Assembly: GCA_016717225.1 (NCBI GenBank)
Contig: JADKGB010000013.1
Location: 34,144-98,143 of the forward strand
Direction of reading: 5' to 3'
Origin: Flavobacteriales bacterium
GTDB taxonomy: Bacteria; Bacteroidota; Bacteroidia; Flavobacteriales_F; PHOS-HE28
DNA: 64,000 nt
Below are positions 457-51,245 of the stretch, in pieces. The notes under the pieces are model-generated. The model saw only the letters and a list, made by a program, of their open reading frames with translations, was not told the origin of the DNA and made no database searches. Each line of letters opens with the position of its first letter. Within the stretch, counting starts at the first letter, position 1. Both the position numbers and the translations under genes were made by a program.

Positions 457-586
457 TCTTCTTCAAATGTAACGATGCCGAGTGGTCGGTGTGAAGGCTT
501 GGTTCTGTCGCTCATGTATCGCCCCCGGACCGATGCTCGATGTTGATCGCGCATTGGTCCGGGGGCGACCAGAACGTGTGTGATCT

Positions 587-13152: not shown

Positions 13153-13261
13153 GGGCTGGTTTGGGGCCGCGAAGTTGCATGAATGGAACCATAGATGCAC
13201 GCGGATGCACACAAGTAATCCACGACCATGAACATTCTTTTGCGGCGAGGAAAAGCGGCGC

Positions 13262-14687: not shown

Positions 14688-14733
14688 GTGTTGTTCGGTG
14701 GTTGGACAAAGCAGCAATGGAATGCGATCCATT

Positions 14734-14810
14734 CGTGCTCCATCCCCACTCGTGGCGAACAAACCGATGTGAAAGAGATGTCAGTGATGCGTCGGCGAGT
14801 GCGATCTTGG
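14734..14810 (+). repeat. copy 1 of an ~77 bp direct repeat (91% identical to copy 2 at 16784..16860)
   Basis: cgtgctccatccccactcgtggcgaacaaaccgatgtgaaagagatgtcagtgatgcgtcggcgagtgcgatcttgg. Ends 30 bp upstream of the hydrolase ATG. Confidence 0.85.
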
Positions 14811-14841
14811 CGCCCCAAGCATCCCCACAGATCCCCGCAAC

Positions 14842-16670
14842 ATGCCCCTAATGAAGAATGCGCTCTCCTGTTTCCTGATGATCGCATTGTTTGGTTCCTG
14901 TTCCGATCCCGGGCCGGCGGTGGTGGCGAAAGACCCCATCCACGAAGTGGAAACCGGCCTTTGTTATCCCAACTACCTGGTAGGCGACTCCACTTGGACC
15001 ATTGAGGAGCGCATGGCGCATTACGGTGTGCCCGGCATGAGTATCGCGGTGATCAAGGACAACAAGATCGCATGGATCAAGAGTTACGGTGTTGTGGACA
15101 AGGAGACCAAAGAGCCCGTTACGGACGCCACGCTCTTTCAGGCGGATCCATCAGCAAGCCGGTTTCCACATATGGCGCGTTGAAGCTGGCAGAGCTGGGC
15201 CTGATCGCATTGGATGCTGATGTGAACACGCAATTGCATTCGTGGAAACTGCCGGAGAATGAGTTCACGCAGAAGCAGAAAGTAACCCCGAAGTTGTTGC
15301 TTGGCCATATGGCAGGCACCACTGTGCACGGCTTTCTCGGCTACAGCCCCGACCTGCCCGTGCCCTCGCTTGTGCAGGTTCTGAGCGGTGAAGCTCCTGC
15401 AAATTCGCCACCCATCGTTGTGGACAAGCTGCCAGGCGAGAGTTTCCGCTATTCCGGCGGCGGTTACTGCATCATCCAGCAATTGATGATCGATGCCAAG
15501 GGCGCGACTTTTCCCAGCATCATGGATGAATTGGTGCTGCGCCCGTTGGGAATGACCAAGAGCACATACGATCAACCCCTCACCGGTGAACACCTGAAAA
15601 TGGCCGCCACAGGCTACGTGCCCGATGGATCCATGACCAAAGGGAAGCGACATACGTATCCCGAAATGGCTGCGGCAGGATTGTGGACTACGGCCGAGGA
15701 CCTCGCGCGCTATGTGATCGACGTTCAGCGTTCGTACAGCAGCGACAGTGGCGCTGTGATCTCCAAGGCTTCGGCCGCGATGATGCTGTCGCCGTACATG
15801 GAACCCTTTGCAGGCGTGGGCATGTTCCTGCGGATGAACCAAGGTGAAACTTCTTTCGGACACGGAGGTTGGGATGAAGGTTTCTCGAGCGAATGCGTCG
15901 CATACCGCGACAAGGGCTACGGTGTGGTGGTCCTTACCAATGCCAACCAGCCGGACTTCATCAGTGAGGTGATCCGTTCCGTAGCGCGGGCTTATGCCTG
16001 GAAGGGATATGTACCCACGTACACGAAACTGGAAATGGATCCCGCAGCGCTTGGAAGGGTAAGTGGGCGCTACCGCCTTTCAGGAAACTCCTTGACGACC
16101 ATTTCACATTCAGGTGGCCGCTTGTTCCAGCAGGCCATGGGCGAGGAGCCGGTTGAAATGTTCCGGATATCGGATTCCACCTACATCAGTCGGGACGGCG
16201 ACTTCCCTATCCAGTTCAAGGGATCACCAGCAGATAGCACGATGATCATGGTGAGTTGGGATACCGAAAAATGGACTGCCGCGTCAAGCTACCCAAGGTT
16301 GCAGGAAAATGACCGCCTGCCGATCGAGATGGTCCTCTCCGGTGATGTGGAAGGGGCCCTCATCGCTTACCGAACACGCTTGGTTGCGGATCCCAAGGAT
16401 CAGTCCATTTCCGAACAAGCGATCAACGATCTGGGCTACCAATTCCTCGGCAATGCAAAGATCGTGATGGCCAGGGATCTGTTCAACTTGAACAGGCAGC
16501 TATATCCCCAAAGTGCCAATACGAACGACAGTTACGCCGAAGCCTGCCTGAAGAACGGAGAAAAGGATCTGGCGCTGACCTATTACAAAAAAGCCGTTGC
16601 CATGGACCCCACCAACAGCAACGCGGCGAGGGTGATCAAGGAACTGGAGGGGAAGGAGGCTAATAAGTAG
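14842..16670 (+). pseudogene. serine hydrolase of the beta-lactamase (class C/PBP-like) family with C-terminal TPR-like region, frameshifted at ~15145
   Basis: MPLMKNALSCFLMIALFGSCS lipoprotein signal. ...YGVPGMSIAVIKDNKIAWIKSYGVVDKETKEPVTDATLFQA, then in the other frame GSISKPVSTYGALKL (the S-x-x-K active-site motif). The frames rejoin if gcgga is gcggga (a one-G deletion). Confidence 0.75.
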
Positions 16671-16783
16671 CATTCCATCCCGAACGTTCCAGATAGGGAA
16701 TGACCGCTATGGGACTCGAGCATCGTTGTCTGACCACAACCAAGTTCACACGCTGCGGACCTTTCTTGTTTTGAGTAGCTGCC

Positions 16784-16860
16784 CGTATTCCATTCCCACT
16801 CGTGGCGAACAAACCAATGTGAAAGGGATGTCAGTGATGCGTCGGCGTGAGCGATCTTGG
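16784..16860 (+). repeat. copy 2 of the ~77 bp direct repeat
   Basis: cgtattccattcccactcgtggcgaacaaaccaatgtgaaagggatgtcagtgatgcgtcggcgtgagcgatcttgg. Lies in a 900 bp non-coding region upstream of the RND efflux operon. Confidence 0.85.
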
Positions 16861-17577
16861 AGTTCCCGATTCAGCCGAACTCAACGGCGGGGTCCAGCGT
16901 TGAACGATCGCGCGAAAATGAAAAAATGTGAAACCGGGATCATGCCCCGGAACAACCTGATAAGTTCGCCGCCGATTTAGAAAGATGCTCCATCCCGCGC
17001 CCAACAGAATATTGCATGTCATCGTAGCATGTGCGTTCTGGTTCGGATTACAGATGTGCTTTCCGCAGGTGCTTCATGCAGCGGATCTCCCTGGTACGTT
17101 GGAAGAGATCAGCTGTCGCTCCATGGACCCGGAAGATCAGAATGGGAACCCGTGTCTGGGCTTCGGGCATGACATCTGCCTTCCACAGGGACTAACGATC
17201 TGCGCATCTGTGTTGGTGAACGCGCCCTGCCGGTCCTTGGAAACCGCTCATGGCCGTGGAAGCTTGTCGCTTCTTGCTTTAGAGGGTATCCAGCCCTCAG
17301 CCCCTTGATCCGACCAGTCCCGGTCCGCTGACCGGATATGCGGCCTCGTTTCCAGAGCGGCCGTTCCCTGTGAACACAGGCTTTCCGTTTACCGCGTCTT
17401 TCATTCTTGGTGGCGACCGACCCAATGGGCATGGGGCCTCCGCTTCCCGATCACCGATCCATTCTTGGTATGTTCAACAGCAGTCCTTCCATCGATCTGA
17501 AGTCTTCCCCGAAACAGGACCATCCACAACACCGGACGCTCCGGAGCGTTGAGGGAAATGGCCGCCGACAACTGGCC

Positions 17578-18684
17578 ATGGACCTCCCGCGTTCGCGTTG
17601 GCCCGCGTGGTCGCTCCTTGTAAGTCTGTGCCTTACGTTGTTGCTTGTCGGATGTGGTGCGCATGAGGAAGCCGTAGAAGTGGAGGACCCGAAGTATCCG
17701 GTCACCAGCCCGTTGCTCGCAGATACCATCGTTCAAAGCGACTACGTGTGCCAGATCCACTCTGTACAACACATCGAGTTGCGAGCGCTGGAGAAGGGCT
17801 ACCTGCAGGACATGCTGGTGGATGAAGGGCAGAAGGTATCGGAGGGACAGCTCCTGTTCCGGATCCGGCCAGTGCTTTATCAGGCCGAAGTGCAAAGGGC
17901 GCAGGCTGAGGCCGAGTTCGCGGAGATCGAGTACCGCAACACCAAGACCTTGGCGGACAGCAATGTGGTATCTCCCAACGAACTGGCGATGGCGCAGGCG
18001 CGCTACAACAAGGCCAAGGCTGAATTGGCCGCGGCCCAGGCTCACCTGGGATTCACCGAGATCCATGCACCGTTCAACGGCATCATCGGCAGATTCCATG
18101 TGCGGAAGGGTTCTTTGTTGGATGAGGGCGAACTGCTGACGGAGCTTTCGGACAACAGTTCCATGTGGGTCTACTTCAACGTGCCTGAAGCCGAATACCT
18201 GGAGTACAAGAAAAGATCCCTTGGCGGAAATGGTACCAAGGTGAAGTTGAAGATGGCCAATGGCCAGCAATTCGACCAGCAAGGCGAGATCACCGCCATC
18301 GAATCCGATTTCAACAACACCACGGGCAACATCGCGTTCCGCGCCACATTCCTCAACCCGCAAGGATTGCTGAGGCATGGGGAGACCGGCAACATCCTGA
18401 TGGACTCGGAGCTGAAAGGTGTACTGCTCGTACCACAGAAGGCCACCTTCGAGGTGCTCGATCACCGGTACGTTTATGTGGTCGGTAAGGACAGCGTACT
18501 GCACACGACACGCGTGGAGATCGGCCCTGAACTGCAGCACCTGTTCGTGGTGAACAGCGGGTTGAAGCAGGACGATCGGTTCCTGTTGGAAGGCCTCCGC
18601 AAGGTGAAGGACAAGGACAAGGTGGACTTCGAGTTCACCCCGCCCGATTCGGTGATGACGCATCTGGACCTGTACGCCGAGTGA
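17578..18684 (+). CDS. efflux RND transporter periplasmic adaptor subunit (membrane fusion protein)
   Basis: Lipoprotein signal ..LLLVGCG. Coiled-coil and beta-barrel regions typical of the HlyD/AcrA family. ATG at 17578. Confidence 0.9.
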   Translation: MDLPRSRWPAWSLLVSLCLTLLLVGCGAHEEAVEVEDPKYPVTSPLLADTIVQSDYVCQIHSVQHIELRALEKGYLQDMLVDEGQKVSEGQLLFRIRPVLYQAEVQRAQAEAEFAEIEYRNTKTLADSNVVSPNELAMAQARYNKAKAELAAAQAHLGFTEIHAPFNGIIGRFHVRKGSLLDEGELLTELSDNSSMWVYFNVPEAEYLEYKKRSLGGNGTKVKLKMANGQQFDQQGEITAIESDFNNTTGNIAFRATFLNPQGLLRHGETGNILMDSELKGVLLVPQKATFEVLDHRYVYVVGKDSVLHTTRVEIGPELQHLFVVNSGLKQDDRFLLEGLRKVKDKDKVDFEFTPPDSVMTHLDLYAE

Positions 18685-21700: not shown

Positions 21701-21950
21701 GAACCGCACCATCGGTTCATCCTCGCTGGGTGGAATGCTCGTCGGTACGCTGATCGGCGTGCTGGTGATCCCCGGCCTCTACTACGTGTTCGCCACCATG
21801 ATCCAAGGCCGCAAGCTCATCAGCGATGAACGCGATGAACCTGTATCGGAACAGTTCGTCCGCACTGGCGAGGAAGCGAATGAATCGAAAAGACCTATAA
21901 GATGCATTGAACGCACGCCTGAGGACCTGCTCAAGCGCAAAAAGGATTGA
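18708..21950 (+). CDS. efflux RND transporter permease subunit (HAE1/AcrB family)
   Basis: 1080 aa with MFRNFIQRPVLAIVISVLILFVGGLAIKQLP. AcrB-like throughout. Confidence 0.95.
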   Translation: MFRNFIQRPVLAIVISVLILFVGGLAIKQLPTAQFPEIAPTTVNIFIAYPGASADVLTKSTIIQLETAINGVQGMRYLASDATSAGEGTIRVIFEPGTDPNEAVVRVKTRVDQVMPNLPLLVQREGVIITPVQPSMLMYVNLYGDGKDADELFLYNYAFTQLIPEIQRIPGVAQAQILGSRKYAMRVWMKPDRMRAYNISAQEIMTAMEEQSLIARPGRLGQSSGIDAQSFEYVLIYKGQFNEPEEYRNIIIRANEEGEMIRLRDVADVELGSEFFDIYSNLDGKPSASIVLKQTLGSNASEVIAQVKAKLGELAKFMPPSIDYKVSYDVSTFLDASIEQVLHTLRDAFILVALVVFLFLGDWRSTLIPILAVPVSLIGAFFVMQMFGLSINLITLFALVLAIGIVVDNAIVVVEAVHAKMEGNHHLTPYAAVKEVMGEIGGAIIAITLVMVSVFIPISFMTGPVGVFYRQFSITMAGSIIISAVVALTLTPVLCAMLMKPHHGTHRKKSIMDRFIDAFNRGFERITGRYVAILNRIVVRRLLTFGSLAVFCVAIWLTNQVLPAGFIPSEDQGTIYAIVQTPPGSTLETTNEVARDLQKICKEIPEVESVSSLAGYEIMTEGRGSNAGTCLIDLKPWHERKKNVTEVMKELEEKTKDLGAVIEYFEPPAVPGFGSSAGFSLRMLDKTNGTDYHEFERVNNEFMDALRKRKELTGLFTFYAANFPQYEMIIDNKLAMQKGVSIGKAVENLNILIGSTYEQGFIRFGRFFKVYAQAAPEYRRYPTDLTGLFVKNEEGEMVPYSSFMHFEKRLGPNEITRYNMYNSSTIRGLSVEGYTSGDAIKAIQEVAKENLPRGYDIAWEGLSYDEAKRGNEAIYIFIVVLIFVYLVLAAQYESFVLPLVVILSLPVGVLGSFLLLKAMGLANDVYAQIGIIMLIGLLGKNAVLIVEFAVQKQRAGATVLEAAIEGAKARFRPILMTSFAFIAGLVPLVTASGAGAIGNRTIGSSSLGGMLVGTLIGVLVIPGLYYVFATMIQGRKLISDERDEPVSEQFVRTGEEANESKRPIRCIERTPEDLLKRKKD

Positions 21951-23397
21951 TGAATACGACAGCAACAATGAGCCGATCGATCAACCAACTGGCGACCTTT
22001 TCCCTTCTGGCGCTGCTCTCCTTTTCTTCCTGCGTGCCGGCATTGAAAATGCGTGAGGCACGGAAGGCCGAACCCGCCACGTATGCGGGCGTTTACGATA
22101 CCACGGACGCTGCCACTACGCAATGGCGACAGTTCTTCAAAGACCCCGATCTGCGCGCGCTGGTGGACAGTGCCCTGGCCAACAACCAGGAGCTGAACAT
22201 CATGCTGCAGGAGATCGCCATCGCCCGGAACGAGGTGCGCGCGCGCAAGGGCGAATACCTGCCCTTTGTTGACTTCAGCGCGGCCGCCGATGTGGAGAAG
22301 GTGGGCCGCTACACGCGGAATGGTGCCGTGGAGGAGGCGTTGAACATTGATGAGGACAAGGCGTTCCCCGAACCACTGCCGAACTTCATGCTGGCCGCGC
22401 GGGCCTCATGGGAGCTCGATGTCTGGAAGAAACTGCGCAACGCCAAACAAGCCGCTGTGATGCGCTACCTGGGTTCTGTGGAGGGCAAGAACTTCATGGT
22501 GACCCAACTCGTCGCCGAGATCGCAGATTCCTACTACGAATTGATGACGCTGGACAACCAGTTGGAGATCCTGCGCAGCAACATCGCCATCCAGCAGGAC
22601 GCATTGGAGATGGTGAAATTGGAGAAGCTGGCGGCGAAAGTCACGGAACTGGCCGTGCGCCGGTTCGAGGCCGAAGTGCTGAAGAACCGCAGCAAGCAGT
22701 ACGACATCCAACAGCGCATCGTGGAAACGGAGAACCGGATCAACTTCCTGGTGGGCCGCTATCCGCAGCCCGTAAAACGCAACGCCCAGGCGTTCTCCAC
22801 CCTTGTGCCCGATACGATCTACGCGGGTCTGCCATCCCAATTGTTGTCTTACCGCCCCGACATCCGCAAAGCCGAACTGGAAATGGCCGCCGCCAAGCTG
22901 GATGTGAGATCGCCAAGGCGAACTTCTATCCAAGCGTGCGCCTCACGGCGGGCGTGGGGCTGAACGCGTTCGATGCGGCGCTCCTCACCGAAACGCCGGC
23001 ATCGCTGCTCTACACCGTGGCCGGTGACCTGGTCGCACCGCTGATCAACCGGAACGCCATCAAGGCCGTATATGCCAATGCGAACGCCCATCAGATCCAG
23101 GCGGTGTACGATTACGAACGCACTGTGCTGAACGCTTACGTGGAAGTGGTGAACCAGCTCTCCAACATCAGCAACCTGCGCAGCAGCTATGACCTGCGCG
23201 CGCAACAGGTGGCCACATTGAACAGTTCCATCACCATCTCGTCCAACCTCTTCCGTTCCGCCCGTGCGGACTACATGGAAGTGCTGCTCACCCAGCGCGA
23301 TGCCCTCGAATCACGATTCGAACTGGTGGAAACGCGCAAGCAGCAGATGAACGCCATGGTGAACGTATACCAGGCCTTGGGTGGTGGTTGGAAGTGA
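21947..23397 (+). pseudogene. efflux transporter outer-membrane factor (TolC/NodT family), frameshifted at ~22906
   Basis: Lipoprotein signal ..SFSSC. ...RPDIRKAELEMAAAKLDV in one frame continues as EIAKANFYPSVRLTAGVGLNAFD... in the other. gtgag is likely gtggag. The 4 nt overlap with the RND gene indicates an operon. Confidence 0.8.
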
Positions 23398-24344: not shown

Positions 24345-25127
24345 TCACTCTTCCGATCGCACACCGCCCATCCACTCCTTGAACGATCGCGCCTTCTCAC
24401 GGCTCACCATGGCTTCCGTGGGCGAGGCAGGTGAGAGGATCACTTTCAGCTTCCCCTGGAAATGCTGGTGGACAACCGAGATGGCAACAACACTGGCGAT
24501 GGTGGCTCGGTTCAATCGGTAGAATGCGGAAGGATCCAGCAGCTCTTCGAGCTCATCGAGCGGTTGGTCGATGGGATAGCGGCGCCCTTCACGCGTGGTC
24601 AGCTCGGTGATGCCGTCACTGCTGGTGAAGTACGCGATGTCACTGGCGAGCAGCGGCAGCAACTTCACACCCACCTTCACCAGGAATCGCTCTTTGTACT
24701 TCGGTGTGCGTTGCGTTATGCGCTCGATCAACTGTGACAGGTCGGGCAGCTCGCTTTGTTTGTTCGCCGTGAGGGCCTTGAACTTGGCCACGCCGCGCAG
24801 GAGGTCCTGTGCTTCGATCGGTTTCAGCAGGTAGTCGATGCCGTTGGTGCGGAAGGCCTCCAACATGTACTCGTCGTAGGCCGTGGTGAAGATGATGGGG
24901 CAGGGGATCCTCACCTGCTTGAAGATCTCGAAGCTCAGGCCGTCCGATAGTTGGATGTCGCTGAAGATGAGGTCGGGGGCTTTGTGGTGATCGAACCAAC
25001 GAACGGCCTCGCTGATCGCGTCGATCACTTCCAGTACTTCGAATTCCGGATGATGCTCTTGCAGGAGGCCATTGAGGCGCCGGTAGGCGGGTGCCTCGTC
25101 CTCGATGATGAGCACGCGCTGTGGCAT
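24345..25127 (-). CDS. LytTR-family two-component response regulator
   Basis: MPQRVLIIEDEAPAYRRL receiver domain (D..D, LSDG). C-terminal LytTR DNA-binding domain. Confidence 0.9.
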   Translation of the reverse strand: MPQRVLIIEDEAPAYRRLNGLLQEHHPEFEVLEVIDAISEAVRWFDHHKAPDLIFSDIQLSDGLSFEIFKQVRIPCPIIFTTAYDEYMLEAFRTNGIDYLLKPIEAQDLLRGVAKFKALTANKQSELPDLSQLIERITQRTPKYKERFLVKVGVKLLPLLASDIAYFTSSDGITELTTREGRRYPIDQPLDELEELLDPSAFYRLNRATIASVVAISVVHQHFQGKLKVILSPASPTEAMVSREKARSFKEWMGGVRSEE

Positions 25128-26176
25128 CAAGCGCGAACGGTTTCAGGGTGAGCGGCCATTTCCAACAAGGGCAGGGCCACCAGGAAGTGCTCGCGCGTTT
25201 CGATCACATCCACCTGGCGATCGCTCAGATAGGCGTAGCGCTGCTTGATATTGGCCAAGCCTGTCCCCGTGCTGCCTTCCACGGTCTGTTTGCGGCGCAG
25301 GTTGTTGCGCACGATGAGCGAGCGGCCGTTCTCCACGTAGATGTCCACCCGCAGGGGTGACGCGATACTGGCGACGTTGTGCTTCACGGCGTTCTCCACG
25401 AGCATCTGCAGGGTGAGCGGCGCGATCAGCAGCGACCGCGATCCTTCGTCCACGTTCAGGCGGATGTCGATGCTCTGCTCGAAGCGCATCTTCATCAGGT
25501 AGTTGTACGCTTCCGTGAATTCCAATTCGGTGCGCAGGTCCACCACTTCTTTGTCCTTGTGCTGGAGAATGTAACGGTACACGTCACTGAGTTTCTGCGT
25601 GAAGCGCGCGGCCTGCTGGGCGTCTTCGTCAATGAGCGTCACCAGCGTGTTCAGGCTGTTGAACAGGAAGTGCGGACTGATCTGGTTCTTCAATACGCTC
25701 AGTTCGGATCGCAGGTGCTGGCTCTTCACCTCCTCGGTTTCCAACAACTGCTTCTTCCACTGCCCGAAGAAGTAACCTGCTTCGTAAAGCGTACCCACGA
25801 AGAAGGCGATGCCCATGTTCATCGCGGTGCGCACCCAGAAGGCGTTGGCCAGGTATTCGTTGTTCTGGAGGTTGAATCGGATGAGGGCTTCACAGATGGT
25901 GGTGTCCACGATCATGTTGTAGCTGCCGACCAGTGCGATGCTCAGCAGGACCCGCTTCCATGTGTGGGAAGCCTCCGGCAAGCGCCTCCGCATGGCCATG
26001 ATGATGGTGTAGTCGCCCTGCCAGATGATGGCCGTGATGCTGATGGACAGCAGGAAGTTCCATGCTTCATACGGTGGCTCGTTGTAGATGAGGCCTAGCG
26101 CACCGCCCAGCAAGGGGATGCCGATGATGCGCGGCCAAGGTTCGCGGAGCAGGAAGCGGAAGGCGTTGCCGGCCAT
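25127..26176 (-). CDS. LytS-like sensor histidine kinase (His_kinase family)
   Basis: TM N-terminus. ...HFLFNSLNTLVTLID (H-box of the LytS/YehU type). ATPase motifs ..VENAVKHN.. and GTGLANIKQRY. Its stop overlaps the response-regulator start. Confidence 0.85.
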   Translation of the reverse strand: MAGNAFRFLLREPWPRIIGIPLLGGALGLIYNEPPYEAWNFLLSISITAIIWQGDYTIIMAMRRRLPEASHTWKRVLLSIALVGSYNMIVDTTICEALIRFNLQNNEYLANAFWVRTAMNMGIAFFVGTLYEAGYFFGQWKKQLLETEEVKSQHLRSELSVLKNQISPHFLFNSLNTLVTLIDEDAQQAARFTQKLSDVYRYILQHKDKEVVDLRTELEFTEAYNYLMKMRFEQSIDIRLNVDEGSRSLLIAPLTLQMLVENAVKHNVASIASPLRVDIYVENGRSLIVRNNLRRKQTVEGSTGTGLANIKQRYAYLSDRQVDVIETREHFLVALPLLEMAAHPETVRA

Positions 26177-26443
26177 GTGAACAGAGCACTAAAGTAGAGC
26201 CCTGGACTTGCGCTGCTCGCATGTCGCAAGGGTGGAACGCACGGATCCGGGGGTGAAGTGACGGATGTCGGGGTTGGAACCGCTGCAGCATCCGGTGGAG
26301 TGGAGATCAACGGTCCACCGGTGGAAAATGGCGATCCAACAACCGGACTTGTCGTCCTGCGGTAGGGCATGAGGCACCGCGCAGGCAGCCACGCCACTTT
26401 CGCGGCATCAACGATCACCCCACACGCACACATCCCATCCGTC

Positions 26444-28852
26444 ATGAGCCGAACGATCACCCGCGCAACGCTGCTGTCCCTCCTGTTCACCCCGCTTTTC
26501 GGACTCGCCCAAACCCAGGTGGTGAAGGGCGTAGTGAAAGACATGGACAGCGAAGAGCTCCTTCCCGGCGTCAGTATCGCCGTGATCGATATCGATCCCA
26601 AGCTCACCACCACCTCGGATATCGATGGACGATTCCGGTTGGAAGCTGTCCCGCTGGGTCGGCACACGCTGGCCTTCAGTTTCGTTGGTTATAAGAACGT
26701 CACCGTGCCCAATGTGCTGGTGACCGCCGGGAAGGAGGTGGTCCTGGAGATCGGCCTCGAAGGGTCTGTGGAACAATTGAACGCCGCCGTGGTAACGCGC
26801 GACAGCAAGAAGGACCGGCCGATCAACGACCTGGCCAAAGTGAGCGCGCGGACCTTCAGCCTGGAGGAGGTCACGCGTTACAGCGGGGGGCGCAATGATG
26901 TGGCCCGGCTCGCCACGAACTTCGCCGGGGTCAGCGGGGCCAACGATTCACGCAACGACATCATCGTGCGCGGCAACAGCCCCAGCGGCCTTCTTTGGCG
27001 CGTGGAGGGATTGCCCATCGGTTCCACCAACCATTTCGCCACGCTCGGCACAACGGGCGGGCCGGTGAGTGCCTTGAACACCAACCTGCTGCGCACGAGC
27101 GATTTCCTCACCGGTGCGTTCCCGGCGGAATACGGCAACGCCAATGCCGCGGTCTTTGATGTGAAGTTCCGCAACGGCAACACCGACAAGCACGAGTTCA
27201 CCGGACAGATCTCGGCCTTTACAGGTGCTGAACTGGTGGCCGAAGGGCCGATGAACCGCGAGAAGCAGAGCAGCTATCTGGTGAGCTACCGCTATGGTCT
27301 GGCCAGCCTGGCTGCCACGGGAACCAGCGCCAAACCCTACTTCCAGGATCTGGGCTTCAAACTGAATTTCGGCAAGAGCAAACTGGGCCGCTTCGAGCTC
27401 TTCGGTATGGGCGGCAAGAGCAGCATCGACTTCTTCGGGGCGAAGGTGGACAGCACGGACCTCTTCGCCGACCCCAGCCAGGACGCGTATGTGGCCAACC
27501 AGCTCGCGCTGGCCGGCCTCAGCCACTTCTACCAGTTGGACGAGAAGAGCTACATCAAGACCACGCTGGGCACCACGTACATGAGCAACCGCTACGACCA
27601 GGACAATATCATACCGGGCACCAGCGATCAACCAGAGCGCAAGTACCGGGCGACCGAGGTGAACGACCTGGAGCAGCGCTACACGGTGAGCAGCCAGTAC
27701 AACCGCAAGTTCAGCCCGCGCTTCAACCTGCGTGCGGGGGTGGTGAACGAGTTGATCGCCCTGGACAGCAAGGTACAGGACCGCGATGATCGCGCCGGGA
27801 TCCCGATGCGAACGCGGACAGCATTCCGGACTACTTCATCACCGTGCGCGACGTGAACGAGACCAGTGATCTGCTCCAGGTGTATGCGCAGGGCGAGTAC
27901 AAATTCACCGACCGACTGGAATTCACCTTCGGCCTGCACAGCCAGTACCTCGACATGACCAACGACGTGATGGTGGGGCCGCGCACCGCGATCAGCTGGC
28001 AGTTCAAGCCGAACCAACGTTTCTCGCTCGCCTACGGCCTGCATGGCCAGATGGTGCCGATGCCCATCCTCGTGCGCCTCGCGCCCGATGCCAATGGAGA
28101 CCTGGTGCGCACCAACGGCAACCTCTCCTTCATGAAGAGCCACCATGTGGTATTGGCCTACGACCGTCGCTTCGGTGACAACTGGCGGTTGAAGGCGGAA
28201 GCCTACTACCAATCGCTCTTCGATCTGCCCGTGGACAGCTACAGCAGCTCCTACAACGCCGTGAACGAAGGCGCCAACTTCATCTTCACGGAGCGGAACA
28301 ACCTGGTGAGCAAAGGCACCGGCACCAACCAAGGGGTTGGAACTCACCATCGAGAAGTTCCTGAGCAAGGGCTACTACACCCTGGGTACGGTGTCCCTCT
28401 TCCAGTCGCGCTATGAAGGCAGCGACGGCGTGGAGCGCAGCACGTCTTTCGAGAACGGCTATGTGGCGAACGCCCTCATCGGGAAGGAGTGGGGCATCGG
28501 CAAGGCCAAGCGCAACTTCGTGACCTTCGATACCAAGTTCACCACCAGCGGCGGCCGCCCCTACACCCCGATCGACCTGGAAGCCACGCGCGCCAACGCC
28601 GGTCGGGAAGTACTGCAAGAGGACAAGGCCTACAGCAAGACCTATCCCGACTACCTGCGCTTGGATGTGAAGCTGGGCGTCCGCTTGAACAGTAAGAGCA
28701 AGAAGATGAGCCACCAGTTCTTCGTGGACCTGCAGAACATCACCAACCGGGAGAATGTGTTCGTGGACCGCTACAACCCGGTGACTGACCGCATCAACAC
28801 GGTGTACCAGAACGGCTTCTTCCCTGATTTCATGTACCGTATACAGTTCTGA
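26444..28852 (+). pseudogene. TonB-dependent receptor (CarboxypepD_reg + plug + barrel), two frameshifts (~27799 and ~28345)
   Basis: MSRTITRATLLSLLFTPLFGLAQTQVVKGVVKD... (carboxypeptidase-regulatory-like domain and plug). The protein is split over three frames and ends ...NGFFPDFMYRIQF (aromatic C-terminal residue). Both junctions lie in ggg/gggg runs. Confidence 0.8.
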
Positions 28853-30078
28853 GCGGACGCTGCGATCGAGCGGTTCGTGAGGGGTTGGGCGTCGCCCCCC
28901 CCGCCGGGCCCTCCCCCCCTCTTCCAGTTCGTGAAATTCCCACCATTGAAGAGATACACCCCGCCCGAAGTCCCGATCCAAAGCTGCCCATTGGCATCTT
29001 CGAAAAGGCTTTGGACGTTCTTGAGGCCAGCACCGTCCCGTTCCGTGTAGCAGGTGAACTTTTTTCCATCGAAGGCGCAAAGGCCGTACGCGCTCGCTCC
29101 GATCCAAATGATCCCCGCGCTGTCCTGGTAGATCACCCAAACCTGCTCGCCCAGCACCCCATCCTTTCTGCCATATGCCGTGAATGTCTTCCCGTCGTAC
29201 TTGCAGAGCCCTCCCTTGCGGGTACCGAACCACAGGTTCCCGGCCCTATCCTCCATGACGGTCTGCACGAAGTTGTTGCAGAGCCCGTCAGCTTCAGAAA
29301 GGTTGGTCAGCGTTTTCCCATCGTAGCGATAGACGCCTCCGCCATTGGTAGCGAACCAGATGTTCCCGGCCTTGTCCTGGATCATCGAGTTGATCTGTTT
29401 CGGGTACTTGTAGTAGGGGAACTTTGAAAGGTCCGAAGCAGGGATCGGGAAGGAGGTAAAGGTCTTGGAGCCTGTCCTGAGCGAAGCCGAAGGATCGAAG
29501 CGCGACACGCCTTCTTCGGTACCGAACCATAGACCTCCAGACTTGTCCACCAACAAGCAATACACCTGATCACTGGCCAGGCCATCCTTCGTTGTGTAGC
29601 GAGTGAATTTTGTTCCGCCTGCACTGAGCGTTGCCGCAGGGTCGTAGCGCGATACGCCACCTCCCGTGGCGAACCACAGATCACCATGCTCATCTTGGGA
29701 AATGCCCCCGACCCAATTGCCGCTGAACCCTTCCTGCGGCGTGAAGTACGCGAGCGACTTTCCTTCTGTCCTCAGCGAGGCCGACGGATCATATCGCGCA
29801 ACACCGTCGCTGGTGGTGCCGAACCACATGTTGCCGTCCCGGTCCTGGAATATCCGGCGGATGTACTGGCTGATCTGTTCGGTGGAAGTGGGCGGGTTCT
29901 GAAGGCGGGCCGCGAGTGTTGCGCTGTCCGGTTGCGCGGCCGGTGGTGGAGTTGAGCCGCCAGCACGCTCCGGCGGTGCAGATGACTTGACTTGTTCCGT
30001 GCAGGAAGAAACGAACAGCAGCGACCCGAGCAGGAGGGTGGACAGCTTGTATCGGCCGGATCTTCCGCTCTGAAGCAT
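28771..30078 (-). CDS. two-component-regulator propeller (Y_Y_Y-like beta-propeller) repeat lipoprotein, 3' end uncertain
   Basis: Signal MLQSGRSGRYKLSTLLLGSLLFVSSC. Repeated ...GNLWFGT..GG..RYD units. The C-terminal GGGPGGGG is encoded by C8/C7 runs. The ORF overlaps the convergent TonB-dependent receptor by ~80 nt, which suggests a frame error near 28890-28920. Confidence 0.65.
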   Translation of the reverse strand: MLQSGRSGRYKLSTLLLGSLLFVSSCTEQVKSSAPPERAGGSTPPPAAQPDSATLAARLQNPPTSTEQISQYIRRIFQDRDGNMWFGTTSDGVARYDPSASLRTEGKSLAYFTPQEGFSGNWVGGISQDEHGDLWFATGGGVSRYDPAATLSAGGTKFTRYTTKDGLASDQVYCLLVDKSGGLWFGTEEGVSRFDPSASLRTGSKTFTSFPIPASDLSKFPYYKYPKQINSMIQDKAGNIWFATNGGGVYRYDGKTLTNLSEADGLCNNFVQTVMEDRAGNLWFGTRKGGLCKYDGKTFTAYGRKDGVLGEQVWVIYQDSAGIIWIGASAYGLCAFDGKKFTCYTERDGAGLKNVQSLFEDANGQLWIGTSGGVYLFNGGNFTNWKRGGGPGGGGDAQPLTNRSIAASAQNCIRYMKSGKKPFWYTVLMRSVTGL

Positions 30079-30134
30079 GGTGCAATTGAACAAGTCGGAT
30101 CAAACCTAACCGGGTTTCCATCTCGGACCGCGTG

Positions 30135-30403
30135 ATCACCTGTACAAGCCGAACGCTCATCCACTCAACCACGGATCCGAGTTGTACAAGCCGGGCACGC
30201 GATCAGTGAAGGTCCGTTCGGCCCTGTACACCTGCGGCTCGGTGGCGTTCCAATGCCGTACGGTCTTGTACAGAAAGGCGCTCAACTTGGGCATGAATGC
30301 GGGACGATCGCACAACAATGCCGGTGGCATGTACAGCCGCGTTGAGCATCGCGCCGGTCTTCCTGTACACGAATGCTCCTGCCTTGTACGGGGGGGGGGG
30401 GGG
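30135..30403. repeat. array of seven YYTGTACA palindromic motifs at a ~42 bp period, terminating in a G14 homopolymer
   Basis: TGTACA at 30141, 30184, 30226, 30267, 30330, 30364 and 30385 (truncated). G14 at 30390..30403. The surrounding region 30094..30944 has no credible ORF. Confidence 0.8.
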
Positions 30404-30944
30404 AACCCCGCCTGGGAAGTGTTCGTGGGCAAAGCCGGGCAACTCCAAGTCATGAGCGGACCGCACTTCCCGAACCATGCCATGCTTTTTACGAGCCCGG
30501 CGGAGACGCTGGAGGAGGCAGGGCGCACCGCACGCCATCGTGGCGCGTTCCGGCCGCCGAAGAACGTCCGGCGGGCAGACCTGCTTCGTTGCGCTCAGCG
30601 GCTCGAAGAGGCGCGCGACACGGAACTCACGCGAACCACTTGACTGCCTTCCTTAAGTAAGCTCGGTCGAGGCTTTGAACCGCAAGATTCCAAGCCACGC
30701 CGGGGAGCGAACTAACAACCGAGCGCTCGAGCAGGATGGAGGTTCCTGTACCGTTGCGCGCTTATCAACCGGTTCCTTCCGGAATAGTAGCGATATACGC
30801 GGCGCTATGCTAACCAATTGACCACCAGTAGCGAGAACACCTTCGGCCGGCGCCGGGGGGCAATCTGGCTGAATGCGTTCACCAATCGGTGGCTTTGTCG
30901 GCAGATTAACTGCAAGAATCTGCTCTTTCATCATAACGCATTAT

Positions 30945-33692
30945 TCAAAATCCCCCCATCCCAGGCCCCGCCGGCACACCTGCATTGAGGTGCGCATGCA
31001 ACGCCGCCTCATTCGGGATCAACACCCGCCGCGCCTTCGAACCTTCAAATCCACCGAGGATACCTGCTGCTTCCAACTGGTCCACGATGCGGCCTGCGCG
31101 GTTGTAGCCGAGCTTCAACTTGCGTTGGATCATGCTCGTAGAACCTTGCTGTGTTTGCACCACGATGCGGGCGGCTTCTTCGAACATGCTGTCGCGGTCG
31201 CCGTCGTCCACATCGCCGCCGCCTTCGCCTTCTTCGGTGGGTACTTCGGGTAGGATGAGCGCATCGGGGTAACCGCGTTGGTTGCCGATGAACTCGGTGA
31301 TCTTCTCCACTTCCGGTGTGTCCACGAAGGCGCACTGGATGCGGATAAGGTCGTTGCCGGTGCTCAGGAGCATGTCGCCACGACCGATCAGCTGGTCGGC
31401 GCCGCCGGTGTCCAGAATGGTGCGGCTATCGATCTTGCTCGTAACGCGGAAGGCGATGCGCGCCGGGAAGTTGGCCTTGATGGTTCCGGTGATGATGTTC
31501 ACGCTCGGGCGCTGCGTAGCGATGATCAAGTGGATGCCGATGGCGCGGGCGAGCTGTGCAAGTCGGGCGATCGGCGTTTCCACTTCGCGGCCAGCGGTCA
31601 TGATCAGATCGGCGAACTCGTCCACCACCAGAATGATGTAGGGGAGGAAGCGGTGGCCGTTCTCCGGGTTCAAGCGGCGGCTGATGAACTTGGCGTTGTA
31701 CTCCTTGATGTTCCGCACCTGCGCGTTCTTCAGCAGTTCATAGCGGTCGTCCATCTCGATGCACAAACTGTTCAGCGTGGCCACCACTTTCTTGGTGTCG
31801 GTGATGATGGCTTCACCTTCGCCTGGCAGCTTCGCCAGGAAGTGCCGCTCGATCTTGTTGAAGAGCGTGAGTTCCACCTTCTTTGGGTCCACGAGCACGA
31901 ACTTGATCTGGCTCGGGTGCTTCTTGTACAGCAGCGAAACCAGGATCGCGTTCAAACCAACCGACTTGCCCTGACCGGTAGCGCCCGCCATGAGCAAGTG
32001 CGGCATCTTGCTGAGGTCGGTAACGAAGGTCTCGTTGGTGATGGTCTTGCCCAGAACGATGGGCAGGTCCATGGTGGTGTTCTGGAATTTCTCGCTGGCG
32101 ATCACCGCGCGCATGCCCACGATCTGCGGCTTGCTGTTCGGTACTTCGATACCGATGGTGCCCTTGCCGGGGATCGGCGCGATGATGCGGATACCGAGCG
32201 CGGCGAGGCTCAGGGCGATGTCGTCCTCCAGGTTCTTGATCTTGCTGATGCGCACACCCGCCTGCGGGATGATCTCGTAAAGCGTAACGGTGGGCCCGAT
32301 GGTCGCCTTGATCTTGTCGATGCCGATGTTGTAGTGGGAGAGGGTCTCTACGATGCGGTTCTTGTTCGCTTCGAGTTCCTCTTTCGTAACGGTGAGTTCA
32401 CCTGTGCCGTGATCGACCAAGAGATCGATCGGTGGCAGCTCATAGCTCGAGAGATCCAACTTGGGGTCGTACTCGCCGAACTCTTGCAGCTTGGCTTCGA
32501 TCTGCGCTTCCGTTAGCACTTCGTCTGCCGCAGGCGCTTGCACGCTCATGCCGCCAACGTTCATGGGAATGGCCGCAATGATCGGATCGATCGGTGCGCT
32601 TTCCGCAAGTGGGCTGTCCGTTTCCAATTCCAGTTCAAGCCCGTCCTCGTTTTCTTCGGATGGCAATTCTTCGTCACCGGAAGGGTCAACTTCAAAGTCC
32701 ACGGAATTCGAAAGCTCGGTCGTCTCTTCTTCCACCGTTTCCTCTACCTCGAACGCAGGCCCTGCTTTGGGTGTGGATGCCAGGATGTTCGCCGCTGCGA
32801 TGGTTTCGCGCATCGTGTTGGGTGTGCTCCAGCCTTCTGCATCCTCACTTGTGTTCGAAGTCTGCTCGTCCGCCTCTTCGACAGCATTTTGCTTCCGCTC
32901 AAGCAGCGCGGTCAGCCAACCGAACGATGGATTGAACGTGAATACACCAAAAGCCGCAGCGCTGAAGAGGATCAACGCACCCGCACCAAAACCACCCAGC
33001 CAGGAACTCAAGTGCGCATTGATGGTGTAGCCGATGCCACCGCCCAGGAACATGTATTCGCTATGCGCGAAGAAGAAGCCCAGCAGCGTGGGCACCCAGA
33101 AGAGGGACATCACCGTCCACCGGAAGGTTTTGTTGCGTGGCAAGAGCCATGTGCCCAGCACCACGCGCAAGCCACCGATAAAACTCCACAGCACCGTGGC
33201 GAACGCAGCGATACCGAACCACTTGTAGATGAACTGGTGACTTACGAGCGCTCCCAGCTTGCCGAGCCAGTTCTCCACATGCACCGCCGGGCTGAAGATC
33301 TCACCCCACGGGCGCGACATCAGGTCCTGATCGATGCGCCAGGTGATCAAATAACTGGTGAAAGCGACCAGCAGGTACACCGAAGCGAGTACCAGGAAAA
33401 GCCCGCCCACTTTGTGCGCGCGCTCGTCCGCCAGAAAGGCCTTTACGCGCGACCACTTGCTTTCTGCTGCCGCTTCTTTCTTCTTCCGGGGCTTGCGCTC
33501 CTTCGCCGGAGCCGCGTCCTCAAGGTCTTGCACTTCTGTAGGATCCGCATCGCGGACTTTGTTCTTTTTCTCGCTGGCCACTGTGGTGTGCTTTGATAGC
33601 CGCGATCCATGCCAATGGGCTTGGTGCGCTGACCGAGCGAAACTACCCGGTGCCACAGTGGAGAACGGATGCCGGAACGCGGCTATTATCAA
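30945..33692 (-). CDS. ftsK: DNA translocase FtsK/SpoIIIE
   Basis: N-terminal TM segments. Pro/acidic linker. ATPase core (LLMAGATGQGKSVGLNAILVSLL, VVDEFADL) and C-terminal gamma domain (..MIQRKLKLGYNRAGRIVDQLE). The true start is probably an internal GTG (MASEKKNKVR) at ~33585. Confidence 0.9.
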   Translation of the reverse strand: MIIAAFRHPFSTVAPGSFARSAHQAHWHGSRLSKHTTVASEKKNKVRDADPTEVQDLEDAAPAKERKPRKKKEAAAESKWSRVKAFLADERAHKVGGLFLVLASVYLLVAFTSYLITWRIDQDLMSRPWGEIFSPAVHVENWLGKLGALVSHQFIYKWFGIAAFATVLWSFIGGLRVVLGTWLLPRNKTFRWTVMSLFWVPTLLGFFFAHSEYMFLGGGIGYTINAHLSSWLGGFGAGALILFSAAAFGVFTFNPSFGWLTALLERKQNAVEEADEQTSNTSEDAEGWSTPNTMRETIAAANILASTPKAGPAFEVEETVEEETTELSNSVDFEVDPSGDEELPSEENEDGLELELETDSPLAESAPIDPIIAAIPMNVGGMSVQAPAADEVLTEAQIEAKLQEFGEYDPKLDLSSYELPPIDLLVDHGTGELTVTKEELEANKNRIVETLSHYNIGIDKIKATIGPTVTLYEIIPQAGVRISKIKNLEDDIALSLAALGIRIIAPIPGKGTIGIEVPNSKPQIVGMRAVIASEKFQNTTMDLPIVLGKTITNETFVTDLSKMPHLLMAGATGQGKSVGLNAILVSLLYKKHPSQIKFVLVDPKKVELTLFNKIERHFLAKLPGEGEAIITDTKKVVATLNSLCIEMDDRYELLKNAQVRNIKEYNAKFISRRLNPENGHRFLPYIILVVDEFADLIMTAGREVETPIARLAQLARAIGIHLIIATQRPSVNIITGTIKANFPARIAFRVTSKIDSRTILDTGGADQLIGRGDMLLSTGNDLIRIQCAFVDTPEVEKITEFIGNQRGYPDALILPEVPTEEGEGGGDVDDGDRDSMFEEAARIVVQTQQGSTSMIQRKLKLGYNRAGRIVDQLEAAGILGGFEGSKARRVLIPNEAALHAHLNAGVPAGPGMGGF

Positions 33693-39469: not shown

Positions 39470-39649
39470 TGTTCTTCTCCTTCGTTTGCCGCTCATGTGC
39501 GAGTGGTGCAATCTATCCGCGGCCGTCTCTGCCGTTCCGTTAAGTGCAGCGGCTTCTGTCAACATGAACGGGTTCATACAAAGACCGTACGCAGTTCACC
39601 CCTCATCTTATCTTTGGCACGGACCCTTACGGTCTTCAATTCCAAGAAC

Positions 39650-42594: not shown

Positions 42595-42603
42595 ACTCTA
42601 CAT

Positions 42604-43587
42604 TTGGCGTCGATCATGTCATCATCGCTTGTTCTCGTTACCGGCGGCTCCGGCTTCATTGGCTCACATGTCTGTGATGCTCTGGTGGCCGGTGGTAATG
42701 AGGTTCGGTGTTTCGACAACCTTGCCACCAGCAAGCGGAGCAACATCGCTCATCTTGAAGGGAGATCCGGGTTCATGTTCGTTGAGGGGGATATCTGCAG
42801 GATCGAAGAACTGAAAGCAGCCATGAGCGGAGCATCTGCCGTGGTACACCTCGCAGCGTTGGGAAGCGTGCCCCGTAGCATCGCTGATCCCTTGCCCAGC
42901 GAGGCCGCCAATCTCGCTGGTTTCGTGAATCTATTGGAGGCTGCACGGCATACAGGTGTCAAACGCATCGTATACGCCAGCAGCAGTAGCGTTTATGGCG
43001 ATAGTGCCGAACTACCCAAGCGCGAAGGCACCGAAGGCCGGCCACTTTCACCGTACGCGGTTACCAAGTGCATGGACGAAGCGTATGCTCATTTGTACCA
43101 TCACATGCACGGCCTGCAATTGATCGGCCTGCGGTTCTTCAATGTCTTCGGCGAGCGCCAGGATCCTGAAGGCCCGTACGCCGCCGCGATCCCCAAGTTC
43201 ATCCGTGCCTTTTTGAAGCACGAATCCCCCGTTGTGAACGGTGACGGAGGCCAAACACGTGATTTTACTTACGTGGCTAACGCTGTTCACGCTGTTCTGT
43301 GCGGATTGGCGGCCAAGGATGATGCGGCCGGTGAAGTGTTCAACATCGCCTATGGCGATCGGTTTGATCTGCTTGGCGTGATCGGCCATTTGCGATCGCA
43401 CCTGGCGCGTATCGATCCGGAAATTGCGCATATAGGCGTGAAGCATGCTCCAGACCGCCCCGGAGATGTGCGCGATTCGCTTGCGGATGTGAGCAAAGCG
43501 AAGAAACTCTTGGGCTACGCCCCGAAATTTGACCTGAACGCAGGATTGGATCGAGCAGTGCCTTGGTATGCAGAGCACTGGCGTTGA
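42604..43587 (+). CDS. NAD-dependent epimerase/dehydratase (UDP-sugar 4-epimerase, WbpP/TviC-like)
   Basis: LVTGGSGFIGSH Rossmann motif and YAVTK catalytic motif. The WbpP/TviC-like subtype is tentative. Confidence 0.85.
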   Translation: MASIMSSSLVLVTGGSGFIGSHVCDALVAGGNEVRCFDNLATSKRSNIAHLEGRSGFMFVEGDICRIEELKAAMSGASAVVHLAALGSVPRSIADPLPSEAANLAGFVNLLEAARHTGVKRIVYASSSSVYGDSAELPKREGTEGRPLSPYAVTKCMDEAYAHLYHHMHGLQLIGLRFFNVFGERQDPEGPYAAAIPKFIRAFLKHESPVVNGDGGQTRDFTYVANAVHAVLCGLAAKDDAAGEVFNIAYGDRFDLLGVIGHLRSHLARIDPEIAHIGVKHAPDRPGDVRDSLADVSKAKKLLGYAPKFDLNAGLDRAVPWYAEHWR

Positions 43588-50985: not shown

Positions 50986-51036
50986 CCCCCCCCCCCCCCC
51001 CCCCCCCCCCCCGCCCCCCCCCCCCCCCCCCCCCCC
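50986..51036. repeat. 51 nt homopolymer tract C27-G-C23 (poly-G on the msrB coding strand), 8 nt upstream of the msrB ATG
   Basis: Read directly: C run 50986..51012, G at 51013, C run 51014..51036. Confidence 0.9.
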
Positions 51037-51168: not shown

Positions 51169-51245
51169 GGACATTTAGCTCAGCTGGTTCAGAGCACTAC
51201 TTTGACAGAGTAGGGGTCACTGGTTCGAATCCAGTAATGTCCACC
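51169..51245 (+). tRNA. tRNA-Val (anticodon GAC)
   Basis: Cloverleaf: acceptor GGACATT/AATGTCC. D arm GCTC..GAGC. Anticodon stem CTACT/AGTAG with loop TTGACAG. T arm ACTGG-TTCGAAT-CCAGT. Discriminator A. CCA not encoded. Confidence 0.9.

Follow-up and report, generated by a model that had tools for sequence, protein, structure and literature searches.

Results

Layout of the interval between ftsK and the propeller gene

The stretch of DNA analyzed here, 64,000 nucleotides (nt) of contig JADKGB010000013.1 from a Flavobacteriales metagenome-assembled genome (MAG) and hereafter called the window, contains an interval of about 850 bp, between an ftsK gene and a propeller lipoprotein gene, in which short palindromic TGTACA sites recur at regular distances. 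The ftsK gene flanks the interval at 30945..33692 on the minus strand and carries the Pfam FtsK_SpoIIIE, alpha, gamma and 4TM domains, and a Reg_prop propeller lipoprotein gene forms the other flank on the same strand at 28771..30078/30093. Between the two lie a promoter-like box, an array of eight TGTACA-type units (a to h), a run of 14 guanines (G14) and the remnant of a gene that we term gene A (Table 1). The initial annotation had described the interval between these two genes as gene-free; both flanking genes are confirmed, but at 30404-30643 the plus strand carries what is left of a real gene.

The MAG annotation places three genes here, namely IPO90_09745 (the propeller gene), IPO90_09750 (57 aa) and IPO90_09755 (63 aa). 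For IPO90_09750 no protein family was found, and it is probably not a functional gene. Host-trained codon scores are close to zero in all six frames of the interval (best 0.04 bits per codon), compared with 0.50 for FtsK and 0.16 for the propeller gene, and G+C content ranges from 0.57 to 0.68 over 30000-30900. None of the six-frame open reading frames (ORFs) of the region matches Pfam, scans of the region for sigma-70 promoters and intrinsic terminators returned nothing, and exact-protein look-ups yielded no record for the propeller protein or for the gene A remnant (P0001). The last 300 bp before the ftsK stop match nothing in codon scoring, Pfam, Rfam or homology searches.

Table 1. Features of the ftsK-propeller interval, in window coordinates; L217 and L025 are related loci that carry the same array
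Feature	Position	Strand	Remarks
Bacteroidota-type -7 box TAGGTTTG (TAnnTTTG)	30101..30108	minus	22 nt upstream of the propeller ATG at 30078; identical in L217
Array unit h, TGTACA	30141..30146		Aligns with L217 1375 and L025 15231
IPO90_09750, hypothetical ORF, 57 aa	30157..30330	minus	"L-Y" frame across units c-g; equals P0128
Array unit g, TGTACA	30183..30188		8-bp palindrome TTGTACAA; aligns with L217 1333 and L025 15189
Array unit f, TGTACA	30225..30230		Degenerate elsewhere: TGTGCA in L217, TTCACA in L025
Array unit e, TGTACA	30267..30272		Aligns with L217 1249 and L025 15105; block CTGTACAAGACCG..GCATTG in common
Array unit d, degenerate	30309..30314		CGCACA on plus, TGTGCG on minus; aligns with L025 TGTACA at 15063 and L217 TGTGCG
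Array unit c, TGTACA	30330..30335		Aligns with L217 1186 and L025 15042
Spacer with 8-bp deletion relative to L217	30336..30363		34 instead of 42 bp; from gapped alignment with L217
Array unit b, TGTACA	30364..30369		Aligns with L217 1144 and L025 TGTGCA at 15000
Array unit a, cut by homopolymer	30385..30390		TGTACG on plus; intact TGTACA in L217 (1123) and L025 (14979)
G14 run	30390..30403	plus	Breakpoint; about 190 bp of relatives missing
Gene A remnant	30404..30643	plus	5'-truncated, indel-ridden pseudogene; tblastn and blastn; P0001
IPO90_09755, ORF, 63 aa	30452..30643	plus	Fragment of the gene A remnant
Stretch between gene A remnant and ftsK stop, 300 bp	30644..30944	none	No coding signal, homologue or RNA family

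TGTACA sites of the window

The hexamer TGTACA occurs 18 times in the window against 7.9 ± 2.5 expected, a count that no shuffle reached, and six of these copies (units b, c and e to h) fall within 229 bp, as compared with 12 across the remaining ~63.8 kb. The cluster reported in the initial annotation is therefore real and far above chance, but it comprises six exact copies rather than seven: the seventh site, at 30385, reads TGTACG, its final base being the first G of the G14 run. Two sites had been placed at 30184 and 30226, one position away from their true starts at 30183 and 30225, the remaining exact sites being correctly located, and the spacings of 43, 42, 41, 63, 34 and 21 bp must be replaced by 42, 42, 42, 63, 34 and 21 bp. 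The apparent 63-bp spacing is the sum of 42 and 21, because the degenerate unit d occupies the slot in between, and units a and b stand off register relative to units c-h because of the 8-bp deletion between b and c. The proposed ~42-bp period gives way to a basic register of 21 bp in which alternate slots have decayed.

The units at 30141 and 30183 do share the sequence TGTACAAGCCG, as had been noted. Of the palindromes of 8-10 bp that had been described, the 8-bp TTGTACAA at 30182 is present and is the longest perfect palindrome of the window array, but the exact 10-mer CTTGTACAAG is absent from the window and exists only as the family consensus. Tandem Repeats Finder detected no tandem repeat in the region, where only the hexamer recurs.

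A family of arrays in a 21-bp register

Related loci were collected through an FtsK-anchored scan of GTDB genomes, in which the window groups within a high-GC clade of uncultured Flavobacteriales. When 80 such loci were scanned for clusters, one further TGTACA cluster came up, in L025, and the L025 array was also the sole match when the region was compared with the 80 FtsK-anchored loci by blastn and tblastx. In L025 the hexamer lies at 14979, 15042, 15063, 15105, 15189 and 15231, with TGTGCA at 15000, and the spacings are all multiples of 21. The reverse complement of the window array aligns with the L025 array with a score of 41, against 20.5 ± 1.8 for shuffled sequences, and the two match site by site over their full length. 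A search with the translated array located P0127 on L217, an independent 2-kb contig that is 96.5% identical to window positions 30389..29477 (921 nt) and presents, in this order, gene A, a 158-nt spacer, the array and the propeller gene; on this contig TGTACA occurs at 1123, 1144, 1186, 1249, 1333 and 1375, at spacings of 21, 42, 63, 84 and 42.

The distance from unit a to unit h amounts to 252 nt in both L025 and L217, with zero indels despite 37% divergence, and the register shared by this sub-lineage, a-21-b-42-c-21-d-42-e-42-f-42-g-42-h, is its ancestral layout. The more distant L224 and L226 fill 12-13 consecutive 21-bp slots. The eight slots a-h align one-to-one with the arrays of five other sequences, and the 21-bp register is present in all six arrays. 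A distance of 21 bp corresponds to two helical turns, and the notion of a phased array of dyad-symmetric sites on one face of the helix, put forward in the initial annotation, is upheld, with protein binding as the most plausible role of the sites.

A scan with a position weight matrix constrained to this register, covering 1.54 Mb of related DNA, retrieved arrays at the six gene A loci only, with both strands scoring equally. No second copy of the array exists in the 64-kb window or, outside the gene A loci, in the 1.54 Mb of related sequence, which contradicts the earlier suggestion of a dispersed repeat or miniature inverted-repeat transposable element.

Over 61 units the consensus is tCyTGyACArG, with a TGYACA core and mirror-symmetric flanks, and the ideal site would read TTCTTGTACAAGAA. 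The core columns are conserved in 55 (T), 54 (G), 46 (A), 52 (C) and 52 (A) units, with a pyrimidine at the third position, and the flanking columns mirror each other (C in 36 units versus G in 34; T in 32 and C in 19 versus A in 32 and G in 15). The information of the unit is confined to columns 4-14 and is dyad-symmetric. Three genomes agree in all 30 core nt of units a, c, e, g and h (0 changes), while the spacers differ by ~37-45%; using our own calculation from these mismatch figures, we estimate the chance of unchanged cores at 0.63^30, or about 1e-6. Because the cores are invariant and the register is kept at gene A loci that are only 59% identical, the array element, judged from its conservation, is under selection as a family, even if the window copy may be dead.

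Association of the array with gene A

In L025, gene A encodes a 205-aa protein with an N-terminal helical bundle and a C-terminal fn3 domain, and the array sits between the minus-strand gene A and a DUF6563 lipoprotein gene. Homologues with 90% (L227), 60% (L224/L225) and 59% (L226) amino acid identity were found, and each of the gene A homologues found is preceded, at a distance of 55-160 bp, by an array that is divergent from the gene. No array accompanies the propeller homologues of loci that lack gene A (L009, L201, L218-L223), and the regions upstream of the propeller homologues P0004, P0125, P0005 and P0007 contain none either. Because arrays occur only at gene A loci in the 1.54 Mb of related DNA, we assign the array to gene A and not to the propeller gene. 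This disposes of the original proposal of an operator set specific to the propeller gene, whose orthologues without gene A lack what all gene A homologues have.

The N-terminal domain of the gene A product is a generic helical bundle with no DNA-binding fold. The protein has no NCBIfam match, only marginal or generic PADLOC matches (one at E 0.014) and PHROGs matches to its fn3 part alone; no Rep or Par family was recognized in Pfam, PHROGs, NCBIfam or PADLOC, and no Rep in a PDB search. The gene is frameshifted in L217.

Directly upstream of unit a lies a 15-nt block, CTGCCAGCTTGGCGC (for instance at L025 14955-14978), that is nearly invariant in L025, L217, L226 and L227 and constitutes the best-conserved intergenic piece, though the gene A proteins there are only 59% identical. 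The window lacks the block, because G14 stands in place of this stretch. On visual inspection the block does not qualify as a sigma-54-like element: its spacing is off by one and its -12 part is not conserved.

The history of this control region differs from that of the gene. Between L025 and L227, gene A shows a proportion of synonymous differences (pS) of 0.17, but identity drops to 66% in the upstream spacer and to 46% in the array spacers, whereas the upstream region of L025 is closer to that of L217 (78%) although pS for gene A there is 0.58. Control region and gene A have thus followed different paths in this L025/L227/L217 mosaic, pointing to recombination or to turnover of units where gene A begins rather than to simple conservation, and a recombination boundary may lie at the gene A 5' end.

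The G14 junction and the quality of the assembly

Homology between the window and L217 stops at 30389, just where the G14 run sets in; L217 shows no homopolymer there. Both L217 and L025 carry on through the T of unit a and the conserved block CTGCCAGCTTGRCGCGATTTCT into a spacer of ~158 nt, after which gene A begins; because these homologous sequences run on, the run can be seen to replace about 190 bp, comprising the 158-nt spacer with its CTGCCAGCTTGGCGC block and gene A codons 1-11, and to cut unit a. The last unit had been said to run directly into G14; the run is indeed at 30390-30403, but it marks a breakpoint within unit a and not the end of a unit. Beyond it, tblastn places residues 4-36 of the L217 gene A product on window 30383-30475 (E 1.3e-4) and residues 15-60 of the L025 product on 30416-30619, with large indels, and blastn aligns the remnant at 79% identity with L217 850-923.

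The G14 run may be the scar of a deletion, or it may have arisen as an artefact during assembly or polishing. Its length, and possibly the junction as well, is unreliable, because the same contig holds a poly-C block and homopolymer indels that split genes. The earlier suspicion of a misjoin was justified, given that homology to an independent, 96.5%-identical contig ends exactly there. A phase-variable homopolymer is not indicated, since neither L217 nor L025 has such a tract here and homology breaks off at this point. We conclude with high confidence that the window array and gene A form a truncated relic, beside a pseudogene and an unreliable homopolymer junction.

The poly-C block (C27-G-C23, 51 nt, 50986-51036) separates the beginning of a minus-strand gene (ATG at ~50979) from tRNA-Val(GAC) at 51169-51245. 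Almost certainly it is an artefact that arose during assembly or polishing, and sequence may be missing behind it. Broken genes occur at 26369-28416 and 21947-23397: a TonB-dependent receptor gene is split into ORFs of 495 and 190 aa by 1-nt indels in short G/C runs, with 1 nt lacking at 27802 and 1 nt extra at 28333, whereas in L009 the orthologue forms a single uninterrupted ORF of 828 aa, and an OEP efflux gene has been divided in much the same fashion. These split genes point to indel errors of the long-read type in the MAG. At the 3' end of the propeller gene (28895-28919), runs of C8 and C7, encoding GGGPGGGG, show several indels relative to L009; because of them, the annotated C-terminus of the propeller protein (435/440 aa, compared with 395 aa in L009) is uncertain.

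Variability of the interval and the propeller promoter

The closest genome locus, L009, has flanks 93-96% identical to those of the window, but the similarity breaks off precisely at the ftsK stop on one side and within the propeller signal peptide on the other, and the gap (11981-12508) holds an unrelated 175-aa ORF with a signal peptide and without homologues. Because L009 homology ends at both flanks with an unrelated ORF between them, the ftsK-propeller interval is a hypervariable hotspot. In L025 the same interval spans ~6 kb (12665-18600) and contains a 148-aa ORF, a MORN_2 protein, gene A, the array, the DUF6563 lipoprotein and a CHU_C/PKD protein of the type IX secretion system.

The promoter-like TAGGTTTG box of the window stands 33 bp past unit h. 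The pattern TAnnTTTG has five occurrences in the window (464-471, 30101-30108, 39609-39616, 42599-42606 and 54711-54718) against 14 expected, and each of them is followed, 7-34 nt further on, by the start codon of an ORF of 96 aa or longer, which fits a Bacteroidota -7 element used sparingly in a high-GC lineage. In their placement, the relic units c-h resemble an upstream operator or activator array of the propeller promoter, and this juxtaposition is peculiar to the lineage of the window and L217. Some 2.6 kb from the propeller gene, at 24345-26176, the window encodes a LytS-type histidine kinase (PF06580) and a LytTR response regulator. The pair adjoins a DUF2490 gene and the TonB-dependent receptor gene, an arrangement that is kept together with the propeller gene in L201 and is collinear in L009.

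Constraint on nucleic acid or on protein

Twenty-one nucleotides equal seven codons, and TGTACA reads xTG-TAC-A on both strands. The array could accordingly encode a small, fast-evolving heptad-repeat protein of the form L-[Y/H]-[K/N/T/R]-x-x-x-hydrophobic, divergent from gene A, in which TGTACA would represent Leu-Tyr-(A-starting codon) under a bias for G+C at third codon positions (GC3) and of which the window copy would be a pseudogene. The composition of L025 units a-e agrees with such a protein: G+C at the three codon positions is 0.46/0.33/0.92 (GC3 0.87-0.92), and the codon score reaches 0.55-0.63 bits per codon, with only 0.2% of wrong-frame chunks above 0.5. Open frames of 115-129 codons, with GC3 close to 0.8, are present in L224 and L226, and gene callers do annotate ORFs here (P0127, P0128). 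In the window, by comparison, the codon signal is weak (0.18 bits per codon). Part of the signal is made by the motif itself, and outside the motif columns of the array units there are 3 in-frame stops versus about 5.9 expected, a depletion that is not significant.

The substitution pattern argues against selection on a protein. In the L-Y frame, nonsynonymous (dN) and synonymous (dS) divergence between the window and L217 are 0.035 and 0.039, as opposed to 0.011 and 0.066 in the adjacent propeller gene (dN/dS ~1 versus 0.17). Between L025 and L217 the proportion of nonsynonymous differences (pN) is 0.38 and pS 0.34, and no other frame performs better. Mismatches in the array are spread evenly over the three codon positions (0.39, 0.39 and 0.32). 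The frame has no conserved start codon, and the positions of its in-frame TGA codons vary between L025, L217 and the window. Those of L025, at 14966-14968 and 15129-15131, correspond to TGG in relatives (PAWRDF, RHWN), so that a G-to-A change has struck this type of codon twice, independently.

Codon choice within the units is frozen in a way that selection on amino acids does not explain. Leucine at unit position 1 is written xTG in 42/43 cases (62% genome-wide), never CTC and in 60% of cases with the rare TTG; all 41 NAC codons of the units end in C (41/41, about 71% genome-wide by comparison); arginine at position 3 is AGR in 13/13 cases (11% genome-wide); and the A following TAC is retained whatever amino acid results. 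An L-Y profile searched against 5.8 billion clusters returned only the syntenic ORFs P0127 and P0128, and a HMMER search with the plus-strand ORF against 1.84 billion representatives recovered nothing beyond the 63-aa fragment of that ORF and two TPR matches inflated by repeats.

The coding-like signal comes largely from the 3-nt structure of the motif, with T/A at "position 2" and G/C at "position 3". Because dN/dS is ~1, codon choices are frozen, flanks are mirror-symmetric and no start or stop is conserved, the constraint on the array, as read from the alignments, is one on the nucleic acid and is dyad-symmetric. A heptad-repeat protein is hence an unlikely source of the pattern.

Discussion

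A candidate operator array in a divergent control region

Window 30141-30390 is a copy of a conserved cis-element composed of dyad sites in a strict register of 21 bp, or two helical turns, which in every case closely precedes gene A in divergent orientation. In the mechanism that we favor, a symmetric (dimeric) DNA-binding protein would occupy the sites cooperatively along one face of the helix, and the resulting nucleoprotein filament would repress or activate a divergent control region serving both gene A and the gene on its other side. Cooperative binding by a dimer is proposed because dyad sites of 10-14 bp recur every 21 bp and their spacing is kept without indels. The window holds a relic of this module, with gene A 5'-truncated, unit a cut by G14 and ~190 bp gone, an 8-bp deletion between units b and c, and units c-h abutting the promoter box of the propeller gene. 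We rate a dyad-symmetric protein-binding array on one DNA face, within a divergent control region, as moderately probable on the evidence of the sequences compared here.

Several observations weigh against this interpretation. No binding protein was identified, no regulator gene is conserved beside the arrays, and the N-terminal domain of gene A is a generic helical bundle. Units a-e of L025 have a coding-like composition, and the ORFs of L224 and L226 stay open over their 115-129 codons. The array spacers and upstream spacer diverge more (46-66% identity) between L025 and L227 than the synonymous positions of gene A do (pS 0.17). The module is, moreover, broken in the window and may have no function there.

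A bolder version of the binding array would have a polymerising gene A product, or an unlinked partner, assemble on the 8-13 same-face sites as a new operator- or centromere-like platform, on DNA possibly dual-coded as a heptad micro-protein and within a module that moves by recombination; we hold this scenario to be decidedly improbable.

Alternative explanations

The array could instead be a functionless, decaying tandem repeat, and the 850 bp deletion junk in a hypervariable hotspot, partly produced by misassembly. Several features accord with decay: gene A is a pseudogene here and frameshifted in L217, an 8-bp deletion and the G14 breakpoint interrupt the array, the ftsK-propeller interval is entirely different in L009 and L025, and the assembly has homopolymer errors. 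The invariance of cores a, c, e, g and h in three genomes whose spacers differ, together with a register kept at loci 59% identical, is at odds with a lack of function, and as an account of the array itself we consider decay improbable.

A role in RNA, with the array acting as a leader or as a small RNA whose self-complementary UUGUACAA units would pair with one another or bind an RNA-binding protein, had also been raised in the form of a structured RNA leader. The units are self-complementary, the plus strand of the window folds slightly better than shuffled sequences (z -2.0), and the array lies between divergent genes, where 5' leaders could run. The minus strand, by contrast, has a z-score of only -0.8. 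Adjacent units are no better paired than non-adjacent ones (5.6 versus 6.3 Watson-Crick pairs), no covariation was detected, complementarity within units equals the expectation from column frequencies, the common variant TGCACA is not self-complementary and so breaks self-pairing, and the mirror-symmetric flanks fit the recognition of double-stranded DNA. Rfam (Rfam 15) yielded nothing at E <= 10 over 29500-31500 except a chance microRNA match inside ftsK, which agrees with the initial annotation, where no RNase P or transfer-messenger RNA signature had been recognised. In view of the empty Rfam search, the fold z-scores and the lack of covariation, a structured leader is not borne out, and we regard an RNA function as very doubtful.

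Iterons or the partition centromere of a degraded plasmid, phage or integrated element are likewise very doubtful. Iterons typically recur every 21 bp, the hypervariable locus has a mosaic make-up, and phage-like IMG/VR contigs of ~56 kb carry 5-7 iterons of 21 bp (CGTGTACAAAAAGTGGAGTAT) directly upstream of a rep-like gene. None of the six arrays, on the other hand, has a gene for Rep, ParA, ParM, TubZ or an integrase next to it, gene A matches no Rep or Par family, only the 10-12-bp dyad core is conserved instead of a full-length direct repeat, and no AT-rich unwinding region is present (G+C about 0.6; DnaA boxes were not specifically searched). The iteron- or centromere-like array envisaged in the initial annotation consequently finds no Rep or Par gene to support it.

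LytTR regulators classically bind repeats at a centre-to-centre distance of 21 bp, and their sites are direct repeats of 9-10 bp, 12-13 bp apart and normally in pairs. Control of the propeller gene by the nearby LytS/LytTR system, with the array as its operator set, might be entertained from the kinase-regulator pair 2.6 kb away and from the promoter box that the array abuts, but we reject it as barely credible, since system and array do not co-occur (L201 has the same two-component system and the propeller gene without an array, as does the collinear L009, and L224, L226 and L227 have arrays without such a system in the available sequence), the sites here are dyads in 8-13 copies, and the intergenic region between the kinase and TonB-dependent receptor genes has no sites.

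Significance

If the array does bind a protein as proposed, it would represent an uncharacterised cis-regulatory architecture in uncultured, wastewater-associated Flavobacteriales, with up to 13 dyads held at a distance of two helical turns and linked to one small gene, and would offer a handle for finding a new regulator-operator pair in Bacteroidota. It would also call for caution in annotation, in that a binding array with an internal 3-nt structure can mimic a coding region and be called a "hypothetical protein". For the window itself, the message is that the region is a decayed relic and that G14 and the poly-C block 20 kb away are best regarded as unreliable assembly junctions.

Comparison with known systems

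Searches for comparable elements returned little of direct relevance. Literature on TGTACA/TTGTACAA operators or on arrays of this kind yielded nothing relevant, a pattern scan of viral sequences found only unrelated iterons and exact tandem repeats, and a pattern scan of metagenomes found 15 unrelated coding tandem repeats of 21/42 nt, without homologues of the array. A partition-type operon, with an NTPase and a small centromere-binding protein, is present in none of the six loci.

Coding heptad repeats, such as those of L205 and L215 from the metagenome pattern scan, resemble the array in their 21-nt periodicity, their xTG-TAC-A pattern and their open frames, but they keep the whole unit at the protein level (e.g. 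GHGDLNERHSHLYN), whereas here only the hexamer is kept and dN/dS is ~1.

The iterons of L089 likewise stand in a helical register of 21-22 bp immediately upstream of a gene and share the TGTACA core. They differ in being direct repeats conserved over 17-22 bp beside a Rep gene and an AT-rich region; the array, in contrast, consists of 10-12-bp dyads with free spacers, has no Rep and is GC-rich. As an observation in its own right, L089 (6861-7009) and more than 80 related IMG/VR contigs of ~56 kb bear five to seven 21-bp CGTGTACAAAAAGTGGAGTAT iterons upstream of a rep-like gene (MSELTGNNLVEKSKALVWAKFTDYTAGELRLLEVYLSRINPRD...), and this family looks like a large group of gut phage-plasmid-like elements with only two GenBank phage matches, both unannotated.

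Also comparable are the centromere and operator arrays of R1 parC-ParR, the pSM19035 omega heptads, tubC-TubR and the MetJ met-boxes, in which many short sites within the control region of a neighbouring gene are bound by cooperative dimers that form a continuous nucleoprotein filament. In the ParR, omega, TubR and MetJ systems the units abut one another (7-12 bp) and adjoin a partition NTPase or a biosynthetic operon; here the units are 21 bp apart, the adjacent gene encodes an fn3 protein, and no ribbon-helix-helix or winged helix-turn-helix gene belongs to the module. The spacing itself is that of the ARG boxes of ArgR and of LytTR promoters, in which two boxes, TGAAT-N4-ATTCA or 9-bp direct repeats, lie 21 bp apart centre to centre. 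The arrays described here have the same 21-bp, same-face spacing as these systems but extend it to 8-13 dyads of a different consensus.

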